Assembly (NCBI GenBank): GCA_038058285.1
Contig: JBBUBJ010000006.1
Location: 8,683 to 45,982, forward strand
DNA length: 37,300 nucleotides
Direction of reading: 5' to 3'
Origin: Patescibacteria group bacterium
Lineage (GTDB): Bacteria; Patescibacteriota; Minisyncoccia; Phycocordibacterales; WO2-35-19
Made by a program: the position numbers and the translations under genes. Shown here in pieces: positions 425 through 37,078 of this stretch. The number at the start of each line of letters is the position of its first letter. The first letter of the stretch is position 1. A model generated the notes under the pieces. That model made no database searches. It saw only the letters and a program-made list of their open reading frames with translations, and was not told the DNA's origin.

Positions 425-1162
425 TTATATTTCCTCATCCAAATCATTTGGTTCAAACCCGACATCCAATGTAGGGCTGAAATCTGGGTTAAAAGATAGC
501 CACTCAAAAACTTCTTTTTTAAATATTTTAGGATTATCAAAATATTCTGGGAAATCTTTTTTTGAAAGAATTTTATTTTGTTCTCTTCCTTTTCCGCAAT
601 AATCTTGATAACTACTCCATTCGTAATTTTCCAAAAACTTTTTTGCTTTTTCAACATCTTTTATTCCGTTTTCTTTCCACTTTGAATCAATAAGTTTAAC
701 TGGATTTAGATGAATATAAGAAAAAATATATTTTGAGTATGGATCGGTGTCTATATAAGAGCTCTTGAAATTTGTTTCAAAAAGTCCGCCAGTACGTTTA
801 TATTTTGTATTAAAATATTTTGAGTATGATATGCAGAGTTTTTTCATAAAAAGACTAACCTGATCTAACCCGACATTGGATGTAGGGCTGGGTGTTAGAG
901 TTGTTAAAATGTGAAAATGATTTGGCATAAGTGCCCAAGCACCGATTGAAACGATTGGCTTTCCTTTATCAAACTCCCAAGCATCTATTTTTCTTTTAAC
1001 AATATCATCTCTAAAATTTATTCGTTTTTTAGAATTGGAAAGATACAACATTTTTACAAAACGACTTCTATCTTGATCATCTAGGAAAATATTTTGTTTG
1101 CTATTTCCCCTGTTATAAAGATGATAGAACTCACCTTCCACAAAATTTTCTTTTCTTTGCAT
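425..1162 (-). CDS. IS200/IS605-family Y1 (HUH) transposase-like protein, RAYT-like (copy 1)
   Basis: Motifs: N-terminal GEFYHLYNRGN, HUH motif MPNHFHIL, C-terminal YIHLNP with Tyr. Paralogous to 36377..37027. Two copies of the family F palindrome sit in-frame inside the ORF. Confidence 0.8.
   Translation of the reverse strand: MQRKENFVEGEFYHLYNRGNSKQNIFLDDQDRSRFVKMLYLSNSKKRINFRDDIVKRKIDAWEFDKGKPIVSIGAWALMPNHFHILTTLTPSPTSNVGLDQVSLFMKKLCISYSKYFNTKYKRTGGLFETNFKSSYIDTDPYSKYIFSYIHLNPVKLIDSKWKENGIKDVEKAKKFLENYEWSSYQDYCGKGREQNKILSKKDFPEYFDNPKIFKKEVFEWLSFNPDFSPTLDVGFEPNDLDEEI
457..478. repeat. Family F palindrome, copy 1 (CCCGACAT-CCA-ATGTAGGG)
   Basis: Imperfect 8-bp arms around a 3-nt loop. It is the exact reverse complement of 1205-1222. 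Read in-frame as ...SPTLDVGFEP... at the transposase C-terminus. Confidence 0.75.
867..890. repeat. Family F palindrome, copy 2 (CCCGACAT-TGG-ATGTAGGG)
   Basis: Same arms as copy 1 but the loop is complemented (TGG versus CCA). Read in-frame as ...SPTSNVGLD..., 6 residues after the HUH motif. Confidence 0.75.
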
Positions 1163-5110: not shown

Positions 5111-5482
5111 ATGCTTACTCGAGCTGCTATGAATCGCAGTTTAGGATTACCGCGTGCCCCTGGATCTTGTTTCGGAGTTTCCGATCCAAGATATTTACGG
5201 CCCAACTTCAACAGAAGTCCGCTTCCGTTGCCACAAGCGACCAACAAAAACAAGGCCACGATTACCACCAGATTTTATATTCTGGAATGGTGGAAGAAAA
5301 ACTTCGAGCCAGAACACAGGTCTTTTAGGGCCAAAAACAATGGCCTGGCTGTCATCAAAGCGATGCGCATTCTCGGCATCAAAGGGAAATTGACTGGTCA
5401 CAAGCTCCGCAAAGCCGGAGCGAGCAGAGTTTCTCTCCTCAGCTTTAGCGATGGGGAGATTTTCCCGGGACCCAAGCAGTGA
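5111..5482 (+). CDS. Hypothetical basic protein (orphan); coding status uncertain
   Basis: GGAGGTG lies 7 nt before the ATG, a promoter lies upstream and a terminator downstream. However, the G+C-rich stretch is open in several frames on both strands and the N-terminal half is low-complexity (R/P/S/L-rich). Confidence 0.35.
   Translation: MLTRAAMNRSLGLPRAPGSCFGVSDPRYLRPNFNRSPLPLPQATNKNKATITTRFYILEWWKKNFEPEHRSFRAKNNGLAVIKAMRILGIKGKLTGHKLRKAGASRVSLLSFSDGEIFPGPKQ
5434..5459 (+). repeat. Family C hairpin (stem TCTCC/GGAGA around AGCTTTAGCGA)
   Basis: TCTCCTC-AGCTTTAGCGA-TGGGGAGA. Same loop as 7349-7374 and 12463-12490 but with a different stem. Confidence 0.5.
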
Positions 5483-6327: not shown

Positions 6328-7155
6328 TTAATTAGAAATTAGTTTTATCTCTGCAATCATTTTATCAATCTTATCTTTACTTAAACCTGCCTGAACTAAT
6401 ATATCAGGATTATCAAGTGCTTGTTTGCAGAGGACAATACCAGCCTGCATCAAAAGTTTTTCATCGCTTGGGGTGCTTGAGTTGAGACAAGTGATAGGAT
6501 GCAAATGAGCCTCTTCAATCAAATCTTGCAAATTACCATGTTCCGGATAATTCCAGCCGACCAATTTCATATTTTGGCATTTAGCATATTTAATAGCTGA
6601 TTCAGAAAATTTAGTGTTTGTAATGAGCCATCCTTCGTCAAGCTTGTGCTGGTGGTTGCCAAAATCAAATGCAGTGTTAGCCAAATCATCCCATCTGGCT
6701 TTTATATAAAGAGCAATTTTAAGGTCTGATTTGATGCCGAGCTCGTTATGAAATTTAGCTTCAACAAAAATTAATTTTTGTTCGTTCCATGCGACAATGT
6801 CTATTTCATGTTCGGCGCATTCACCTTTGGCAATAAAATCAGTTGTGGTCTCAAAACCTTTGGCTCTAAAAATTTCAGCCACAAATTGTTCAAAAGGAAA
6901 ACCTGTTGGTCCCATTTCCATTACCGCTCGGCGAAGCGAATATCTAGCTGTCGCCGGGCTTTCCTCTTTTTTCAAAAGTTCAAAAGCATGATTATAAATA
7001 TCTTTAGTACTAGCATTATCTTTAAGTTCTCTTTCTATTTGATCTACTATGTTATCAACCGCTTCTGTGCTAGCTCCTGCCCGTGTTAAAGAATCCCGCA
7101 ACTTCTGCGCATTAAATTCTTCTCTTTCTCCCGTTGCTTTAATTATGTATTTCAT
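6328..7155 (-). CDS. ATP-cone domain fused to an Mrr-like restriction endonuclease domain
   Basis: N-terminus KATGEREEFNAQKLRDSL...IERELKD (ATP-cone pattern). Then FEQFVAEIFRAKGFE...HEIDIVAW...FVEAKFH (D...E-x-K REase core). Its ATG at 7155 overlaps the mnmA TGA stop (ATGA). Confidence 0.65.
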   Translation of the reverse strand: MKYIIKATGEREEFNAQKLRDSLTRAGASTEAVDNIVDQIERELKDNASTKDIYNHAFELLKKEESPATARYSLRRAVMEMGPTGFPFEQFVAEIFRAKGFETTTDFIAKGECAEHEIDIVAWNEQKLIFVEAKFHNELGIKSDLKIALYIKARWDDLANTAFDFGNHQHKLDEGWLITNTKFSESAIKYAKCQNMKLVGWNYPEHGNLQDLIEEAHLHPITCLNSSTPSDEKLLMQAGIVLCKQALDNPDILVQAGLSKDKIDKMIAEIKLISN

Positions 7156-8276
7156 TTTTCTATTATACCACCACCAAGACAAATTTCATTGTCATACAAA
7201 ACCAAAGATTGTCCCGCCGAAACTCCCATTTGTGGTTTGTCAAACTCAACCAACAAGGATGACCCTTGTTGGTTAGGTTTTTGTGGTGTAATTTTGCATG
7301 GAATTTTTTCTTGGCGGTATCTTGTACGACAAAATAATTTTTCTTTAGTCCCGCGAAGCTTTAGCGAAGTGGGATTTATCCAATTTATTTCTGAAATTTC
7401 AAGTGTCAAGGGTCCCCCTTGGCTTTTTGAGTATGGTGTAATTTTGGGAGCGACAGTTATAGTGTTTTTTGAAATGTCTTTAGAAACAACATACAAAGGC
7501 ATTTCATTTTCTGATTTTTTGGTGACAGTGAATCCATGACGTTCGCCTATTGTAAAAAATAAAGCTCCGTTGTGGTGACCTATTTTTTTTCCTTCTAAAT
7601 CCAAAACATCTCCTCTTTTTGTTGGCATATATTGAGCTAAAAATTCTTTCATATCTATTTTACCCAAAAAACAAAGTCCTTGGCTGTCTTTTCTTGTCGC
7701 CTGTGGCAAGCCAAATTTTTCCGCCAACTTTCGTACTTTTGGTTTTTGCAAATGACCTATGGGAAATAAAATATGTTCGAGTTGTTTCTGTGTTAATGTC
7801 CACAAAAAATATGATTGGTCTTTGTTTTTGTCGGCTCCTTCCATTAACCCCACCCTGCCCTCCCCTTGATCAGAGGAGGCAACCGTACGAGCATAATGGC
7901 CAGTAGCAACATATTGAGCGCCATTTTTAAGAGCAAATTTGAGAAAGTGGCCGAATTTTATTTCTTTATTGCACATTACATCAGGATTAGGTGTTCTCCC
8001 TTTTTTATATTCGGCAATCATATAGTCAACCACTTCTTTTTTATATTCTTTTTCCAAGTCAAGAGTAATAAAAGGAATATCCAAAACTGCCGCCACTCTC
8101 ATAGCGCTTCTTCTATCTTCTTTCCAAGTGCAAGGATAACTCGGCGGAGTCCACGCTTTTATAAAAACTCCTGTCACATCATAACTTTCCTTCTTCAGCA
8201 ATGCCGCCGACACAGCGCTATCTACGCCTCCAGAAAGCCCCACATAAACTTTCTTTTTTACTGATTGACTTTTCAT
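7152..8276 (-). CDS. mnmA: tRNA 2-thiouridine(34) synthase MnmA
   Basis: PP-loop SGGVDS, KDQSYFL, TRYRQ and the C-terminal GQS.VLY pattern. Contains family A, B, C and D repeats in-frame. Confidence 0.9.
   Translation of the reverse strand: MKSQSVKKKVYVGLSGGVDSAVSAALLKKESYDVTGVFIKAWTPPSYPCTWKEDRRSAMRVAAVLDIPFITLDLEKEYKKEVVDYMIAEYKKGRTPNPDVMCNKEIKFGHFLKFALKNGAQYVATGHYARTVASSDQGEGRVGLMEGADKNKDQSYFLWTLTQKQLEHILFPIGHLQKPKVRKLAEKFGLPQATRKDSQGLCFLGKIDMKEFLAQYMPTKRGDVLDLEGKKIGHHNGALFFTIGERHGFTVTKKSENEMPLYVVSKDISKNTITVAPKITPYSKSQGGPLTLEISEINWINPTSLKLRGTKEKLFCRTRYRQEKIPCKITPQKPNQQGSSLLVEFDKPQMGVSAGQSLVLYDNEICLGGGIIEK
7248..7295 (+). repeat. Family A hairpin + tail, solo copy inside mnmA
   Basis: AACCAACAAGG-ATGAC-CCTTGTTGGTT + AGGTTTTTGTGGTGTAATTTT. 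Near-identical to 37031-37078. It is 48 nt long and is read on the minus strand as KITPQKPNQQGSSLLV. Confidence 0.85.
7349..7374 (+). repeat. Family C hairpin inside mnmA
   Basis: TCCCGC-GA-AGCTTTAGCGA-A-GTGGGA. Read on the minus strand as PTSLKLRG. Confidence 0.7.
7401..7445 (+). repeat. Family B hairpin + tail inside mnmA
   Basis: AAGTGTCAAGGGTCCCCCTTGGCTTTTTGAGTATGGTGTAATTTT. It is 45 nt long and is read as KITPYSKSQGGPLTL. Near-identical to 12561-12605. Confidence 0.85.
7848..7880 (-). repeat. Family D (short, degenerate) inside mnmA
   Basis: CCCCACCCTGCCCTCCCCTTGATCAGAGGAGGC compared with 14729-14773 (CCCCACCCC...GCCCTCCCCTTGTTCAGGGGAGGG). Read as SDQGEGRVG. Confidence 0.55.
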
Positions 8277-12212: not shown

Positions 12213-14642
12213 TTATACCACAAAATTAACTATTTTATTGAGTACAAAAATAGTCTTTTTTATTTCCTTATCATCAAGCCATTTTTGGACATCTGGCATG
12301 ATTAGCGCTTTTTCTTGGGCTTCTTTTTCGGATATGCCCGTTTCCGCTTCAAACTGAGCCCTCACTTTTCCATTTATTTGAACGACAATAATCACATTTT
12401 CCTCTTTAATTTTTGACTCGTCATATTTTGGCCATTCTTCCAAATGAATTGAAGATTCATTTGCCCCGCATAGCTTTAGCGAAGTGGGGCTGTTCCAAAT
12501 CTCATCCGTCATATGTGGTGCAAAAGGCGCCAGCAATTTCAAAAAAGTTTCAAACATGTCTAGTGTCAAGGGTTCCCCTTGGCTTTTTTGGTGTGGTGTA
12601 ATTTTTTCAAGTTCGTTTAATAAAATCATCATAGCTGAAATAGCAGTATTGAATTTATAATTTTCAATATCTTCTGTTACTTTTTTTATGGTTTTGTGCA
12701 AAAGATTCTCGAGTTTTTTATTACCGACTCCTAACTCCCCCGCCTCGCTCCGCTCGGCACCCCCTCTTAAATTAAGAGGGGGTTTGGGGGTGTTATTCAC
12801 TTTTGCCGCTATCTTCCACACCCTCTCCAAAAATCGGCGAATTCCTACCACTCCTCCCAAATCCCACGGATACTGCCCCGTTTCGTTATATGGTCCTATA
12901 AAAGCCAAATACATTTTGACTGTATCTGATCCGACTTTTTCTACCATTTCATCAGGGTCAACTACATTACCTTTGCTCTTGCTCATCTTTTGTCCGTCTG
13001 GTCCCAAAATAAGAGCTCGATTCATTCTTTTAATAAAAGGCTCTGATTCATTTACCAGTCCCAAATCAAAAAGAGCTTTGTGAAAAAATCTTGAATACAA
13101 AAGATGCATGGTGTTATGTTCAGCTCCGCCGGAATAGCGATTAACCGGCATCCATTTTTTTAGCCTGAGCTTATCGAATGGTTCGTTTTTGTTTTTAGAA
13201 TCGCAGTATCTTAAAAAATACCACGAAGAATCTATAAAAGTATCCATAGTGTCATATTCAGGTTTCCAGCCTTCGCCAAATATTTTCTCTACTCTTTCCC
13301 TCAATTCTTTTGAAGTAGCGATTGGAGATTCGCCTTTGGGTGCAAAATCTTTAACATCTTCAGGCAGAAGCCACGGCAAATTTTCTTTCGGCACAGGATG
13401 CGGCTTTCCTTCCGGATCATAAACTATGGGTATGGGACACCCCCAATATCTCTGGCGCGAAAGCAGCCAGTCCCTCAATTTATATTTTGTTACTTTTTGA
13501 CCAAATTTTTGTAAATCCCAGTCAAGTGTGATTTCTTTTACCGGTAAATTATATTTTTTAGCGAAGTCCATATCTCTTTCGTCATGTGACGGAACCGCCA
13601 TAATTGCTCCCGTGCCATAATTACCCAAAACATAATCAGCCACGAAAACCGGTATCTCCTCCCCATTTGCCGGATTAATCACCTTCACTCCTTTTATTTC
13701 AACCCCCGTTTTTTCTTTCTTTTCATTAGTCCTCTCTATTTCTGTTTTTTGTTTTGTCTGATTTATGTATTTTTGAATTTCTTCTTTGTTTCGGATTTCG
13801 GATTTAGAATTTAGAATTTCTTGCGTGAGCCAAGGATGTTCCGGTGCGACAACAACATAAGTTGCTCCCATTAAAGTATCTGCTCTTGTTGTAAAAACTT
13901 TTATTTTCTCTTTTATTTCGGATTTCGAATTTCGGATTTCGAATTTTAAAACTGTTCCTTCCGACTTCCCAATCCAGTTTTTTTGCGCCGTCTTTATTTC
14001 TTCTGGCCATTTCAAATTATCTAAATCGGAAAGTAGGTCCTCAGCATAATCTGTAATTTTGAAAAACCACTGCTCTAAATCTTTTTGAATAACTTCGGCA
14101 TCGCATCTCTCACACTTCCCCGCCACCACCTGCTCGTTGGCCAGCACCGTATTGCACGACGGGCACCAGTTGACGCTAGCCTTTTTCTTATAAGCCAAAC
14201 CTTTTTCGTAAAGTTTCAAAAACAACCACTGCGTCCATTTATAATATTCCGGGTCGGAAGTGATGACTTTGCGCGACCAGTCAAAGGAATTGCCCATACT
14301 CTGCAGTTGCTTTTCCATGTAGGCAATATTTTCGTAAGTCCACTTGCGCGGGTCCACGCCGTGTTTGATGGCGGCGTTTTCTGCCGGCAATCCGAATGCA
14401 TCAAAACCAATCGGAAACATGACATTGTAACCTTGCATTCTTTTGGTCCGCGCGAAAATATCCGGCACGGCAAAAGCATACCAATGACCTATGTGCAAAT
14501 TGCCCGATGGGTATGGGAACTCTACTAGCGTGTAAAAATTTTCTTTTCCCTTTACTTCATCCTCCGTTTTGTAAAGATTATCTTCCTGCCATTTCTTCTG
14601 CCACTTCTTTTCTATTTCTTTATGATCGTATTTTTCTTGCAT
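12213..14642 (-). CDS. leuS: Leucine--tRNA ligase
   Basis: PYPSGNLHIGH (HIGH motif), KMSKSKGN (KMSKS motif), FTTRADT and the editing domain. Contains family B, C, D and two family E repeats in-frame. Confidence 0.95.
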   Translation of the reverse strand: MQEKYDHKEIEKKWQKKWQEDNLYKTEDEVKGKENFYTLVEFPYPSGNLHIGHWYAFAVPDIFARTKRMQGYNVMFPIGFDAFGLPAENAAIKHGVDPRKWTYENIAYMEKQLQSMGNSFDWSRKVITSDPEYYKWTQWLFLKLYEKGLAYKKKASVNWCPSCNTVLANEQVVAGKCERCDAEVIQKDLEQWFFKITDYAEDLLSDLDNLKWPEEIKTAQKNWIGKSEGTVLKFEIRNSKSEIKEKIKVFTTRADTLMGATYVVVAPEHPWLTQEILNSKSEIRNKEEIQKYINQTKQKTEIERTNEKKEKTGVEIKGVKVINPANGEEIPVFVADYVLGNYGTGAIMAVPSHDERDMDFAKKYNLPVKEITLDWDLQKFGQKVTKYKLRDWLLSRQRYWGCPIPIVYDPEGKPHPVPKENLPWLLPEDVKDFAPKGESPIATSKELRERVEKIFGEGWKPEYDTMDTFIDSSWYFLRYCDSKNKNEPFDKLRLKKWMPVNRYSGGAEHNTMHLLYSRFFHKALFDLGLVNESEPFIKRMNRALILGPDGQKMSKSKGNVVDPDEMVEKVGSDTVKMYLAFIGPYNETGQYPWDLGGVVGIRRFLERVWKIAAKVNNTPKPPLNLRGGAERSEAGELGVGNKKLENLLHKTIKKVTEDIENYKFNTAISAMMILLNELEKITPHQKSQGEPLTLDMFETFLKLLAPFAPHMTDEIWNSPTSLKLCGANESSIHLEEWPKYDESKIKEENVIIVVQINGKVRAQFEAETGISEKEAQEKALIMPDVQKWLDDKEIKKTIFVLNKIVNFVV
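12463..12490 (+). repeat. Family C hairpin inside leuS
   Basis: GCCCCGC-AT-AGCTTTAGCGA-A-GTGGGGC. Read as SPTSLKLCG. Confidence 0.7.
12561..12605 (+). repeat. Family B hairpin + tail inside leuS
   Basis: TAGTGTCAAGGGTTCCCCTTGGCTTTTTTGGTGTGGTGTAATTTT. It is 45 nt long and is read as KITPHQKSQGEPLTL. Confidence 0.85.
12733..12792 (+). repeat. Family D hairpin + tail inside leuS
   Basis: CCCCCTCTTAA-A-TTAAGAGGGGG (12760-12782) plus the TTTGGGGGTG tail, preceded by CCCCCGCCTCGCTCCGCTCGGC. Read as TPKPPLNLRGGAERSEAGE. Confidence 0.7.
13789..13820. repeat. Family E tandem units inside leuS
   Basis: TTTCGGATTTCGGATTTAGAATTTAGAATTTC. Read as EILNSKSEIRN. Confidence 0.7.
13915..13947. repeat. Family E tandem units inside leuS
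   Basis: ATTTCGGATTTCGAATTTCGGATTTCGAATTTT. Read as EIRNSKSEIK. Confidence 0.7.
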
Positions 14643-14677
14643 ATTTTAAATATAACCCATTATACGCTTTTTTTCCA

Positions 14678-14718
14678 GAGGATGACCCTTGAAGAATTTG
14701 CCCCAAAGGGTCATCCTC
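14678..14718. repeat. Family G long hairpin (arms GAGGATGACCCTT / AAGGGTCATCCTC, loop ending TGCCCCA)
   Basis: Perfect 13-bp arms. The arm sequence is related to the family A core GGATGACCCTT. The loop end TGCCCCA-AAGGG is shared with 23151-23205. Confidence 0.7.
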
Positions 14719-14811: not shown

Positions 14812-14846
14812 AACGGCTCAGATGGCAGGAAATGAGCCGTTGAAAA

Positions 14847-14888
14847 ACAAGGATGACCCTTGTACTTGAACAAAGTGTGATGTAATTT
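14847..14888 (+). repeat. Family A, degenerate copy
   Basis: ACAAGGATGACCCTTGT + ACTTGAACAAAGTGTGATGTAATTT. The tail overlaps the TAA stop of 14887..15561. Confidence 0.6.
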
Positions 14889-15561
14889 AAACACTCTCTA
14901 TTATTTTTGTTCTTTCCCAATCAGTGGGAACAATGGCGACAATTCTTTTATTTTCAATATCAATCTGAAAAACCATATCCTTTAATTTCCATCCACGAAT
15001 AACTCCTACCTGTTCAAACTGAGTTTTTAATTCGTTCATTTTATGTTCCGCCTCGTTCATAAGAGTTGCAACATCTTCGTCTGAGTACCCTTTTTCTTTA
15101 AGATTTAAGGTATCTCGTTCAGACCAGCGGATACCGGGTATTCGTTCCATAACAATAATATGTGTTCCTCCTTGTTCTGCTTTGGCAACCGGTTTTGCGG
15201 CGGGTAATCCCATTTGAGCAAGCCGTTCAAGAATTTTATACTCATAAAAATGATCTCCTGATTTACCAACATCTCCTTTGGTAAAATTTACTCGTCTAGC
15301 AACAGTTAAAATTTCTTGATTTTCTGGATTTTTCCAAACAGGTAAATCTTTGACAGCAGTTGGGTCTTCTCGAACTTTTCCCGTTTCATCAACTTTCTTT
15401 TCTCCTGTTTTTATGTTCTTTCCTTCTCTCTCAAAATATCCCGTTGGGTCATCAAGAAATTCTTGAGGCACAAAATTAACAAATTCAGTCTCAACTTCTA
15501 CTTTGGGAATGGGAGTGATTTCTTGAATATTATTTTGTGGATTTGGGGAACTTTCCATCAT
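14887..15561 (-). CDS. Hypothetical protein with weak protein-kinase-like (RIO/Kdo-type) pattern
   Basis: The ORF overlaps the hicA stop by 4 nt. EYKILERLAQMGLPAAKP...HIIVMERIPG resembles the kinase alphaC/hinge, but the catalytic-loop position reads GVIRGWKLKD rather than HGDL..N. Confidence 0.5.
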   Translation of the reverse strand: MMESSPNPQNNIQEITPIPKVEVETEFVNFVPQEFLDDPTGYFEREGKNIKTGEKKVDETGKVREDPTAVKDLPVWKNPENQEILTVARRVNFTKGDVGKSGDHFYEYKILERLAQMGLPAAKPVAKAEQGGTHIIVMERIPGIRWSERDTLNLKEKGYSDEDVATLMNEAEHKMNELKTQFEQVGVIRGWKLKDMVFQIDIENKRIVAIVPTDWERTKIIESV

Positions 15562-29874: not shown

Positions 29875-29883
29875 TGCTATAAT
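29875..29883 (+). promoter_or_regulatory. Extended -10 box TGCTATAAT, 6 nt before the ddl ATG (leaderless start suggested)
   Basis: TGCTATAAT-AATCAC-ATG (ATG at 29890). Confidence 0.5.
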
Positions 29884-30971: not shown

Positions 30972-31058
30972 GTTACGCAAAAAAGCGTCAGATGGATTGT
31001 AGCAAAATTATAATGATTTAACCATTAGTGTTTTCTAATCCTAGAATGATACTGAGGT

Positions 31059-31646
31059 CTATTGCGCTAACGCAGCCGCCACATTTACCAATCCATATCC
31101 ATATTGGTTGTCGCGACTAGCAGTTCCCAACTCTTGGGCAGTGGAGTTCATTATTGCTCTTACTTCGTCATTAATGCGTCTGTTGAGGTTAGTATCTCTA
31201 ACCCCCGTTGCTATAACAAGTGCCGCAACACCTGCGACATGAGGCGAGGCCATTGAAGTGCCGGAACCGTATTTGTAGCAACCGCCATCCGAGCGATTGC
31301 ATTTCGGTTGTGGAGTAGAGTAACTGGTATTATCGTTCCATGTTGAATATACAGACACCCCTGGTGCTACCAGTTCCACCTTGGGACCGGTGCTTGAGAA
31401 GCTTGCGCGTTTATTGGTAGAATCAATGGCGCCAACGGCAATCACTGAATCAAATTTTGCCGGATAAATAACATTGTCTCCCGTGCCTGCGCCGATGCGC
31501 TTCACACCCCATGAATTATCAAGTTCAGCATCAGTGGCATATACAGTATCATCAAGGTCAATAGAGGCAACATGCGGATTGCGAGACAATCCCTCAATAG
31601 CTTTAGCTGGTATCGTAGCGGCGATAGCGTCCACAATTTTTTTCAT
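31059..31646 (-). pseudogene. Subtilisin-like (S8) protease remnant lacking the Asp/His part of the catalytic core
   Basis: It keeps the end of an I9-type propeptide (AIEGLSRNPHVASIDLDDTVYA), WGVKRIGA, the VIAVGA..D....RASFSS.GP..E..APG block and GTSMASPHVAG. The D-T-G and H-G-T-H regions between them are absent. There is no signal peptide and no SD. Confidence 0.6.
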
Positions 31647-31664
31647 AGAATTAATCTTTATTAT

Positions 31665-32372
31665 TTAATAATTATCTGCCACAAATCTCTTACCTTTAAA
31701 AAGTAGCCACAACGCGCCCACTAAAATTACCAGTTCGGACCAAAAGTCCCATTGGAACCACCATTGGCTAAGCAGTTCTATTCTGGTAAATCTGGAATAA
31801 TATCCCCCGGTCGGGTCTATGTTAAAGAATAAAAACGAGAAATGTCCAAGCATTAAAAACGCCGTAAATATTACTCCGCCGATTAGTATAAGCTTATAGC
31901 TTCTTGATATTTGCGGGGCTGACTTTGTCAGAAACAAGATGCCAAACAACAAAGCTAAAACTGTTGTATCCGTACTGTGAACATTAAGAAAGTCCCATAA
32001 AAGTTGTGGCCAAACATGAATGTTGCCGGTTCCAAGAGGAAGTTCAAAACTCTTCATTCCAAAAACAGAATATCCGTCTTTGTATGGTAGCCAAATCTCC
32101 TGAACAACAATCATTGTTATTATAATCAGAAAAAGAAAAGCTCCCGCTAAAATCCATTTCCAATTCGTGTCTCTTTTCAAATTCAAGCTTGGCCTGAATA
32201 TTTCGTATGCCAAGCCGGCAAGAATAACAAGAAAGCCAATCCACGGAGGACCGTAACTTATTGACGGAACATCTCCCAAATTTATTTTCGTCCATGTAGG
32301 CATCCAAAGTAATAGCAATAAAACTATCACAAAGAAAATAAACGCAAAAATACGATTTGAAGCATTGCTCAT
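31665..32372 (-). CDS. Multi-pass membrane protein (6-7 helices)
   Basis: 235-aa ORF dominated by hydrophobic helices and rich in Trp/Phe. Confidence 0.7.
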   Translation of the reverse strand: MSNASNRIFAFIFFVIVLLLLLWMPTWTKINLGDVPSISYGPPWIGFLVILAGLAYEIFRPSLNLKRDTNWKWILAGAFLFLIIITMIVVQEIWLPYKDGYSVFGMKSFELPLGTGNIHVWPQLLWDFLNVHSTDTTVLALLFGILFLTKSAPQISRSYKLILIGGVIFTAFLMLGHFSFLFFNIDPTGGYYSRFTRIELLSQWWFQWDFWSELVILVGALWLLFKGKRFVADNY

Positions 32373-35738: not shown

Positions 35739-36317
35739 ATGAAGAAAGTAGTTTTTGATATAGAAACAAGCAATATTTTTTCAGAAGTTGGAACCAATAA
35801 CCCGGCTGATTTGAGTATTTCAGTTGTTGGCGTTTATGAATATGAAAAAGATTTATATAGCTCGTTTTTAGTTGAAGAATTTAACAAACTTTGGTCTATT
35901 ATTGAAAATGCTGATGCTCTCATCACATTTAACGGCGAACATTTTGATATTCCTCTACTTAATAAATATTATTCAGGCGATCTTTTCAAAATTAAAAGTG
36001 TGGACCTTTTAAAAGAAATGCAAAAATCAGCTGGTCGAAGAATGAAATTAGACCAAATAGCCGAGGGCACTCTCGGTATAAATAAAAGTGGCGACGGTAT
36101 GGATGCGGTCAGGTGGTGGCGGGAGGGCGAAATAGAAAAAGTTAAAAAATATTGTTTGGATGATGTTCGCATTACAAAAGATTTATATGAATATGCTCTC
36201 AAAAACAACAAACTTTTTTTTAAAGAAGGACCAAACTTAAACGAAATAAAACTAGACACTTCTTCCTGGGAAACTTCCCCCACTTCCTCTGCTCTTAATT
36301 ACACTTTGCCTTTTTAA
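35739..36317 (+). CDS. DEDDy-type 3'-5' exonuclease (RNase H-like fold, PolB-exo-like)
   Basis: Exo I is VFDIET, Exo II is FNGEHFDIPLL, Exo III is YCLDDVRITKDLY. Confidence 0.75.
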   Translation: MKKVVFDIETSNIFSEVGTNNPADLSISVVGVYEYEKDLYSSFLVEEFNKLWSIIENADALITFNGEHFDIPLLNKYYSGDLFKIKSVDLLKEMQKSAGRRMKLDQIAEGTLGINKSGDGMDAVRWWREGEIEKVKKYCLDDVRITKDLYEYALKNNKLFFKEGPNLNEIKLDTSSWETSPTSSALNYTLPF

Positions 36318-36321
36318 AATT

Positions 36322-36372
36322 AATCAAACCAACAAAGATGACCTTTGTGGTTTGATTAGTGTGGTATAATTT
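36322..36372 (+). repeat. Family A hairpin + tail, left flank of transposase-like gene
   Basis: AATCAAACCAACAAAG-ATGAC-CTTTGTGGTTTGATT + AGTGTGGTATAATTTT. The stem carries a compensatory A-T pair where other copies have G-C. Confidence 0.8.
36362..36370 (+). promoter_or_regulatory. Extended -10 box TGGTATAAT formed by the repeat tail, 6 nt before ATG 36377
   Basis: TGGTATAAT-TTTGAT-ATG. No SD is possible. Confidence 0.5.
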
Positions 36373-36376
36373 TGAT

Positions 36377-37027
36377 ATGAAAAATAGGGATTATAAAAAT
36401 TTTGCTAAGGGAGAAATTTATCATGTTTATAATAGAGGGGTGAATAAAGCAGATATTTTTAAGACTCAGAAAGATTATGAGGTTTTTCTATCCCGTTTAA
36501 AAGAAAATTTATTTCCTGAATTTGTAGATAAAAAGAAATTATCTTGGTTGGAAAAACGCAGAAAATTACTTCCCCCAAACTCTTTTGATTTAATATGTTA
36601 TTGTCTTATGCCGAATCATTTTCATTTACTTATTCAACAAAAAACAGATTTACCCATAACCAAATTAATATCTAAAATATGTACAAGTTATGCAATATGT
36701 TTTAACAAAAAACATGGGAGAGTTGGGGCGGTTTTTCAGGACCAATTTAAGGCTGTATTAGTTGAAAACAATGAACAACTTTTATGGACATCTTATTATA
36801 TTCATAAAAACCCAACAGAAGCAGATATTGTAATAAATCTCAAAGATTATAAATGGGGCAGCTATTCGGAATATTTTGATAAGGAAAATAGTTTTAAATT
36901 ATGTAAAAAAGATATTATTACTAAACAGTTTAATTCCGAAAAGCAATATTTAAAGTATTTTGATGATAAAGAAAATGATGAAATGACTTCTTTGAGAGAT
37001 TTTTATTTTGATTTTAGCGAGGATTAA
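36377..37027 (+). CDS. IS200/IS605-family Y1 (HUH) transposase-like protein, RAYT-like (copy 2)
   Basis: GEIYHVYNRGVNK, HUH motif MPNHFHLL, YIHKNP with Tyr. I prefer the ATG at 36377 because the GTG at 36359 in the ORF track lies inside the repeat. Confidence 0.8.
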   Translation: MKNRDYKNFAKGEIYHVYNRGVNKADIFKTQKDYEVFLSRLKENLFPEFVDKKKLSWLEKRRKLLPPNSFDLICYCLMPNHFHLLIQQKTDLPITKLISKICTSYAICFNKKHGRVGAVFQDQFKAVLVENNEQLLWTSYYIHKNPTEADIVINLKDYKWGSYSEYFDKENSFKLCKKDIITKQFNSEKQYLKYFDDKENDEMTSLRDFYFDFSED

Positions 37028-37030
37028 CAA

Positions 37031-37078
37031 AACCAACAAGGATGACCCTTGTTGGTTGGCTAAGTGTGGTGTAATTTT
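37031..37078 (+). repeat. Family A hairpin + tail, right flank of transposase-like gene
   Basis: AACCAACAAGG-ATGAC-CCTTGTTGGTT + GGCTAAGTGTGGTGTAATTTT, starting 4 nt after the stop codon. Confidence 0.85.

Follow-up and report, generated by a model that had tools for sequence, protein, structure and literature searches.

REP-like hairpin modules with a promoter-like tail beside a RAYT-like gene and within housekeeping genes of a Patescibacteria genome

Repetitive extragenic palindromic (REP) sequences and their associated tyrosine transposases (RAYT, also TnpA-REP) are the closest described relatives of the elements reported here (Nunvar 2010; Bertels and Rainey 2011, PMC3116915; Ton-Hoang 2012; Bertels 2017, PMC5581495). 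We analyzed a stretch of 37,300 nt, hereafter the window, from a groundwater Patescibacteria genome (contig JBBUBJ010000006.1, positions 8,683 to 45,982), which carries short modules made of a hairpin, a spacer and a constant tail, both within the genes mnmA and leuS and next to a RAYT-like Y1 gene. As in REP/RAYT systems, a Y1/HUH gene resides in conserved neighbourhoods and is flanked by a short hairpin repeat that is scattered genome-wide, the hairpin is lineage-specific, and intergenic copies tend toward gene 3' ends. Unlike in those systems, the flanking modules are direct, copies per genome are few, many copies are intragenic and translated (three of the six in the window, where REP sequences are extragenic and high in copy number), a conserved 3' promoter-box tail takes the place of the 5' GTAG-type tag, and the protein reaches 49 bits where the NCBIfam cut-off is 80. 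The explanation that we favour, and hold to be somewhat more likely than not, is that the two module families of the window, A and B, are variants of one REP-like repeat class linked to the RAYT-like gene, and that their tail is a promoter box of the host.

Three other systems bear comparison. Rickettsia palindromic elements (Ogata 2000, in PMC10969869) are, as far as that account describes them, likewise palindromes that unrelated housekeeping genes carry in frame, at surface sites where they do no harm, and each of them encodes a conserved peptide; the modules are found in this way in mnmA, leuS, dus, argS, uvrA and rnhB. Judged by description, the modules differ in belonging to Patescibacteria, in measuring 45-48 nt against ~100-150 nt, in adding few residues, in adjoining a candidate enzyme gene and in bearing a promoter-like tail. 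The ends of IS200/IS605 elements such as IS608 and ISDra2 share with the modules a Y1 enzyme, hairpins that flank the gene on one and the same strand and, at a fixed distance from the hairpin, a short conserved site (PMC6006769), whereas the Y1 gene studied here lies in conserved neighbourhoods instead of in multiple copies, and only an end-like unit of 45-50 nt is dispersed. Correia elements and other miniature inverted-repeat transposable elements, finally, illustrate how a sigma-70-type box on a small repeat can act for neighbouring genes (PMC10969869), a role that the modules may play in relatives for a relA/spoT-like and a uvrD-like gene; the modules are however far shorter, have no terminal inverted repeats or target duplications, and most of their dispersed boxes appear weakened. 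Our literature search found no paper that ties RAYT/REP elements, or leaderless promoters, to Patescibacteria.

Hairpin modules and the RAYT-like gene

Two modules lie within mnmA (7152..8276, minus strand) and one within leuS (12213..14642, minus strand), both genes being assigned by Pfam. The family A module of mnmA (7248..7295, plus strand, 48 nt) folds into an 11-bp stem with a 5-nt loop (AACCAACAAGG ATGAC CCTTGTTGGTT), followed by the spacer AGGTTTTTG and the tail TGGTGTAATTTT, and its minus strand encodes the peptide KITPQKPNQQGSSLLV. The family B module of the same gene (7401..7445, plus strand, 45 nt) has a stem of 8 bp closed by a loop of 3 nt (GTCAAGGG TCC CCCTTGGC); its spacer is rich in T, its tail is ATGGTGTAATTTT and its minus-strand peptide is KITPYSKSQGGPLTL. 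The leuS copy (12561..12605, plus strand, 45 nt), also of family B, occupies a loop of the anticodon-binding domain and encodes KITPHQKSQGEPLTL. An initial annotation, made from the letters of the window, had placed these three copies exactly there and at these lengths. It was also right that they are antisense to their host genes, read KITP… and close with TGGTGTAATTTT, that the tail stands at a similar distance from the stem in both families (9-10 nt past the stem foot), and that a perfect box, TGGTATAAT, is present at 36362-36370.

The three intergenic copies of the window belong to family A and lie on the plus strand. One of them (14837..14889) is decayed, and its tail, GTGATGTAATTTA, ends in a TTA that serves the convergent gene 14887-15561 as stop codon (TAA). 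The other two stand on either side of the RAYT-like gene (36377..37027, plus strand), which encodes 216 aa with the HUH motif NHFHLL and the Tyr motif YYIHKNP. In the upstream variant (36321..36373) the core reads CAAAG..CTTTG, a compensated change, and 6 nt separate the tail TGTGGTATAAT from the ATG at 36377; the copy right behind the stop codon (37026..37078; tail TGTGGTGTAATTTT) has a hairpin of the same letters as the family A copy of mnmA. Across the window, the tail GTGGTGTAATTTT with at most two mismatches occurs nine times where 2.15 occurrences are expected, a count that no shuffle reached. A hairpin precedes each of the six good tail copies, and all six hairpins fold in such a way that the tail is left single-stranded (z from -2.7 to -5.6). 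No Rfam family covers the modules.

The stems of families A and B, taken to be unrelated in the initial annotation, turned out to share CAAGG-N5-CCTTG with an equal 5-nt spacing; only the outer stem and the loop letters differ, and the outer pairs change in compensating fashion. Using this core, a gap of 8-22 nt and the tail TGGTGTAATTT as a pattern, we took a census over one genome per prokaryote species, which returned 48 matches at 41 loci, 40 of them from Patescibacteria (labelled Yonath-, Kaiser-, Vogel- and Zambryskibacteria, Paceibacterota and others). Chance would supply an estimated four or so matches, and the single deltaproteobacterial match is consistent with it. The matches are 35-45 nt long, mostly 37-41, which puts the gap between the CCTTG arm and TGGTG mostly at 11-15 nt. 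The five core pairs are preset by the pattern and hence uninformative on covariation, so that the test rests on the four variable stem pairs, namely the one immediately inside the fixed core and those external to it. Among 50 distinct copies these show 67 double-sided changes against 21.3±4.5 after shuffling (none of 500 shuffles reached 67), and they pair in 91% of cases against 30-56% with one partner slid. The shared core and the covariation place A and B along one continuum, as members of a single hairpin class. The proposed modularity, in which different hairpins share one tail, does not apply to A and B in the window but is supported across genomes, where one tail is found behind truly different hairpins (the CAAGG type, TTACAATGGCCGTCATTGTAA and GGAAGAGGGTTCCCCTCTTCC). 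Hairpins also occur without the tail, as in 17 of 74 core hairpins and in the copy downstream of the RAYT-like gene in L163. A scan of metagenome contigs for the tail by itself (GTGTGGTGTAATTT) says nothing on modularity, 118 among at least 120 matches being chance occurrences with no hairpin.

The 216-aa protein matches Pfam Y1_Tnp at 8.3e-10, above the cut-off, and NCBIfam REP_Tyr_transpos at 49.1 bits, below the family cut-off; a sequence search of solved structures gave no match to it. We fetched the loci around homologues of 57-97% identity (L163-L167); L166 was thus obtained via the protein, not via the G-type pattern of the census, and has a quite different hairpin. Every fetched locus displays the same layout, in which a genome-specific hairpin (of the CAAAG/CAAGG types, TTACAATGGCCGTCATTGTAA, or GGAAGAGGGTTCCCCTCTTCC) is followed by a spacer of 4-11 nt and by TRTGnTATAAT. 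The ATG of the Y1 gene comes 6 nt past this box in five of the six genomes and 13 nt past it in L166. In the window and in L163-L167 alike the gene is bracketed by two modules, and the hairpin type changes along with the gene. The flanking copies lie on the strand of the gene in every locus of the RAYT1 type, and the inverted (REPIN) layout was not encountered at these loci. The neighbourhood is conserved as well, with hisS and an RNase H-like gene, or rpoD, next to a UvrD-like gene (L163, L164 and the P0130 contig), and with a topoisomerase gene and relA/spoT in L165 and L167. In these genomes a single-copy gene, one per clade in the stretches examined, is thus flanked by the genome's own repeats; no whole IS-like element, gene plus ends, was found in multiple copies at varying sites, only the small unit being dispersed. 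Fourteen near-identical copies come from one genome bin (H52-bin079), where they are spread over eight short contigs (among them L004 1-1220 and L018 1-1200). We infer that the RAYT-like enzyme may be what moves the unit.

The modules might instead be host punctuation, a terminator hairpin coupled to a promoter, which arises in place or spreads by recombination and has no tie to the Y1 gene. Both mnmA copies do resemble terminators (a hairpin and a T run; two found, 0.2 expected), the hairpin faces the 3' end of the upstream gene in 16 of 24 intergenic copies, and the tail is the same as the host promoter box described below. We nevertheless regard this explanation as very unlikely, given that near-identical copies stand at unrelated places, reading frames included, that 14 of them share the short contigs of one genome, that the hairpin bracketing the Y1 gene is the same on both sides in each genome and differs with the gene, and that the RAYT-flanking copies of the window have no T run.

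Several observations concern the surroundings of these loci. A second RAYT-like gene of the window (425-1162, minus strand) follows a hairpin of its own, different family (region 425-1260), with TGATAGAAT, 6 nt and the ATG. In H52-bin079 several copies precede small toxin-antitoxin-like gene pairs, HicAB-like and DUF4258/DUF2283-like by eye. Long hairpins at 14668-14715 of the window, near 14025 and 14703 of L162 and near 18518 of L166 contain GG(A/G)TGACCCTT, the top of the family A hairpin, in each arm and are tailless; they look like inverted doublets of the core, a putative REPIN-like form. L162 itself is a European Nucleotide Archive contig of 288,888 nt from a near-identical relative of the window genome, which runs past the right end of the window and whose genes are fragmented, probably by long-read indel errors. 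In addition, the minimum of the cumulative GC skew and a switch in gene direction coincide at about 31000-32000 of the window, a possible replication origin.

The tail and the host promoter word

Tails next to the Y1 gene in the six genomes keep TG and TATAAT constant and vary only where an extended -10 word is free to do so, with R at -16 and n at -13. Ordinary genes of the host display the same arrangement. At 29875, 19812 (minus strand), 7170 (minus strand), 36362 and 32389 (minus strand), TGnTATAAT is followed by 6 nt, once 8 nt, and an ATG; ddl, pgi and an ATP-cone gene of the window have TGnTATAAT-N6-ATG, and the box of the ATP-cone/Mrr gene falls within the 3' end of mnmA. The 11-mer TGTGGTATAAT also occurs with no hairpin ahead of the next gene past leuS, both in the window and in a relative. 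Taken at face value, this layout implies leaderless transcripts that would be widespread in the genome. In L165 and L167 the copy behind the Y1 gene has the same box ahead of a relA/spoT-like gene. The called start of that gene is the ATG 6 nt past the box in L167, and in L165 it was put into the tail, another six codons upstream. L164 has a third copy, which precedes a uvrD-like gene. The tail is best read as the putative extended -10 box of a leaderless host promoter which travels with the hairpin, and unrelated hairpins would share it because the host polymerase, and not the enzyme, sets the tail. A -35 box in the 3' arm (TTGACA, TTGGCT) was considered and rejected, as it lies 12-13 nt from the hexamer by hand count, which is too close; a two-hexamer promoter scan called none of the tails.

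Set side by side, the tails take two forms, TGTGGTATAAT with TATAAT and TGTGGTGTAAT with TGTAAT. In the window the copy upstream of the Y1 gene has TATAAT, while the copy behind it and all dispersed copies have TGTAAT, and the same split is seen in L032 and L166. The resemblance to an extended -10 box proposed in the initial annotation therefore stands for the RAYT-proximal tails, which read TRTGnTATAAT as host genes do, and not for the intragenic tails, which read TGTAAT. No base of a sigma-70 promoter matters more than the A at -11, and it is this A that G replaces in the dispersed copies, for which reason their tails are probably weak or dead boxes. No 6-nt spacing to gene starts was found for the dispersed TGTAAT tails, and the intergenic ones face a gene 3' end more often than a gene start (16 vs 10). 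In L004 the genes behind the copies have their own TGATAAAAT-N6-ATG. The expectation would thus be that TATAAT tails fire and TGTAAT tails do not.

These data bear on the suggestion that the intragenic tails are live promoters whose antisense transcripts regulate mnmA and leuS. Extended -10 boxes can work with no -35 element, the TGn extension of these tails is intact and five of six hexamer places match, and conservation of the tail as DNA within genes (see below) would suit a function there. Antisense firing in mnmA and leuS is less likely, however, since the tails there read TGTAAT, with G at the most critical A, while the box reads TATAAT beside the genes that need a promoter. The orientation of the intergenic TGTAAT copies, their variable distance to gene starts and the separate promoter boxes in L004 point the same way. 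The sole metatranscriptome run found, assembled into unstranded contigs, covers 7578-8115 at depth 2 and none of the copies, leaving 7248-7445 with no reads. Altogether, antisense regulation by the intragenic tails appears quite unlikely.

Two side observations concern tails and their immediate flanks. A weak candidate, which may be due to chance, lies on the minus strand at 36045-36100 in the RNase H-like gene and consists of a 5-bp hairpin (CCGAG…CTCGG), 5 nt and TGGTCTAATTT. A convergent gene stops at most 13 nt from the tail end in 11 intergenic copies, and at most 3 nt from it in five of them (L001, L002, L003, L005, L013, L023, L024, L032, L034, L040 and 14887-14889 of the window). A fixed register between tail and stop was considered and rejected, the offsets being scattered.

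Modules within reading frames

The segments encoded by the modules are not simple additions to their hosts, as they add only +2 to +3 residues in alignments with solved MnmA and LeuS homologues and lie in loops whose length varies among orthologues. An AlphaFold model of MnmA, with a mean predicted local distance difference test score of 60.8, is too weak for placing them. The nearest MnmA, LeuS and Y1 proteins found by sequence search come from Zambryskibacteria, Paceibacterota and further Patescibacteria, and the sequencing runs in which the window occurs are groundwater metagenomes. About 25 of 120 MnmA orthologues have K/Q-I-T-P… at these two codon positions, the part encoded by the hairpin being particular to each of them, and site 2 of MnmA holds a family A hairpin in the window and a family B hairpin in another genome. 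At least four other genomes have the LeuS site occupied. Relative to the closest LeuS orthologue (P0243; L168 1608-4085; 75% identity) the LeuS segment adds +8 residues, and that orthologue itself keeps a shortened remnant, CACACCCCAGAAGTGTCAAGGGGCATCTTTGACAC. A shortened and decayed copy of the same element, this remnant shows in-place decay through in-frame deletion. Most MnmA and LeuS orthologues are without the peptide, and element-free orthologues have K-I or H-I where the junction would be. The data fit two readings, namely old sites at which the hairpin turns over in place, or insertion with a preference for an AAAATT-like target.

The initial annotation had seen one shared reading frame in the three local copies and had proposed that only frame-compatible insertions survive. 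A wider census, covering eight independent intragenic sites in host genes confirmed by Pfam, a small number, reveals four frames instead of one. KITP, antisense, is used at mnmA sites 1 and 2, leuS and dus; NYT, also antisense, at argS and uvrA; KLHH, antisense too, at rnhB; and a sense-strand frame (…CGVIF) at another rnhB. On average 3.4 of the six frames of a copy are open. Stops spare KITP more often than any other frame (it is open in 47 of 52 copies), and it accounts for 27% of all open frames, so that three KITP out of three in the window have odds of ~0.02-0.07. Against a null of any stop-free frame, neither the seven of eight antisense sites (p=0.15) nor the four of eight KITP sites (p=0.14) depart from what filtering for stop-free frames would give. 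Antisense frames are hydrophilic (hydropathy -0.5 to -0.95, C+W 3-6%), whereas sense frames are hydrophobic (+0.26 to +0.54, C+W 14-21%). The shared KITP frame fits a frequent outcome of filtering for stop-free, hydrophilic frames and is no law; the idea of survival by frame holds only loosely, in that stop-free frames friendly to loops persist. A length divisible by three carries no weight as evidence, as any repeat tolerated in an intact gene must satisfy it. One MnmA orthologue reads KLHHTKKSQGEPLTL, with the tail in one frame and the hairpin in the usual one, a switch brought about by two compensating single-base changes in A runs. A replication-strand bias was rejected as the cause of the antisense orientation, the local GC skew of the sense strand being negative in 23 and positive in 28 of 51 copies.

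It is hardly tenable that MnmA and LeuS owe the peptide KITP…QG.PL.L to selection for a protein function of this motif itself. Its recurrence at both MnmA sites and, in several genomes, at the LeuS site would suit such selection; yet MnmA and LeuS are unrelated proteins, other places use three further frames of the same DNA, which is also intergenic, most orthologues lack the peptide, and conservation at synonymous places points to DNA instead of protein. This last point comes from copies selected by their peptide only, four in three other genomes, to which the window adds two: the tail codons are ATT-ACA-CCA in five of these six (three of the four from other genomes and both from the window), where codon usage would lead one to expect 2-5.5% per copy. 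As the synonymous places are conserved, the tail is conserved as DNA even within genes.

Two further features were seen at or near these sites. A third repeat, AGCTTTAGCGAAGTGGG, occurs at 7357-7373, 12472-12488 and 5441-5457, lies near the family B copies in mnmA and leuS and is read there as PTSLKL, a peptide also present at these sites in some MnmA and LeuS orthologues. Many Patescibacteria LeuS proteins (P0244-P0354), with 940-1000 aa, contain a NUDIX domain, and some also hydrolase domains.

The enzyme, the promoter word and the proposed unit

The conservation of the tail as DNA renders the Y1 enzyme a possible second reader, as the initial annotation had suspected. The constant tail may be the cleavage or guide site of the enzyme, conserved since the enzyme would need it for moving the unit. 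This rival is live and compatible with the promoter reading, alongside which it may be true, but we consider it doubtful on balance. It would account for the tight distance between hairpin and tail (mostly 11-15 nt where 8-22 were allowed), for the single-stranded tail in all folds, for the conserved synonymous places of intragenic tails in several genera and for the G-type tail behind three unrelated hairpin types, and IS200/IS605 enzymes cut a short site ~10-19 nt from a subterminal hairpin (PMC6006769). On the other hand, the RAYT-proximal tails vary exactly at the places that are free in a promoter and nowhere else, the downstream copy of L163 and the 17 core hairpins mentioned above are tailless, the identical 11-mer stands at ordinary host promoters with no hairpin, and the known REP/RAYT guide lies 5' of the hairpin foot, where the modules show no conservation. 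Rather unlikely, though worth stating, is a tail read by two parties, by the host polymerase as a -10 box and by the Y1 enzyme as a recognition or cut site.

A number of findings weigh against the explanation that we favour, that of a REP-like class whose tail is a host promoter box. A dead promoter that merely hitch-hikes with the hairpin does not explain the synonymous conservation of the tail or the recurring change from A to G, and promoter activity is deduced from motif and geometry. The repeat is low in copy number, with ~3-5 loci per family at the depth of the organism in the source sample. The flanking copies are direct instead of inverted as in canonical REP/RAYT systems, and no conserved columns that could represent a guide tetranucleotide (GTAG or similar) were found 5' of the stem in 50 copies. 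Empty sites in related strains, which would speak for transposition or cleavage, were sought and none found. The census pattern, moreover, has a fixed core and a G-type tail, and its counts cannot gauge the frequency of other forms.

According to the favoured explanation, the unit would consist of a lineage-specific hairpin kept paired by compensating changes, a short spacer and the 11-nt tail TGTGGT(A/G)TAAT, which would represent the extended -10 box of the host (TRTGnTATAAT). Beside the RAYT-like gene the tail stands ahead of the ATG (at 6 nt in five of six genomes), where its most likely role is to drive a leaderless transcript. Dispersed copies would have received hairpin and tail together, mostly with G for the key A, and would probably be weak or silent as promoters. 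Intragenic copies would persist only in tolerant surface loops, in stop-free frames and as hydrophilic peptides, a filter that would favour the antisense strand and most often KITP, with no fixed frame.

The genomes of Patescibacteria are tiny and have little spare DNA, yet they keep hairpin repeats in essential genes. The explanation put forward here offers a testable model for the expression of a domesticated Y1 gene, for the spread of its unit by the Y1 enzyme and for the likeness of intragenic copies at the protein level, and it corrects the over-reading of a fixed frame that three local copies had suggested. If the tail is also the enzyme's site, the module would be a compact mobile unit built around a promoter word. 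Such a dual tail would couple enzyme expression with the mobility of the hairpin unit and with the seeding of promoters or terminators beside host genes; the switch between A and G would part an expressed master copy from silent mobile copies; and the tail would be held constant even within reading frames, whereas at old insertion sites one hairpin would replace another in place.

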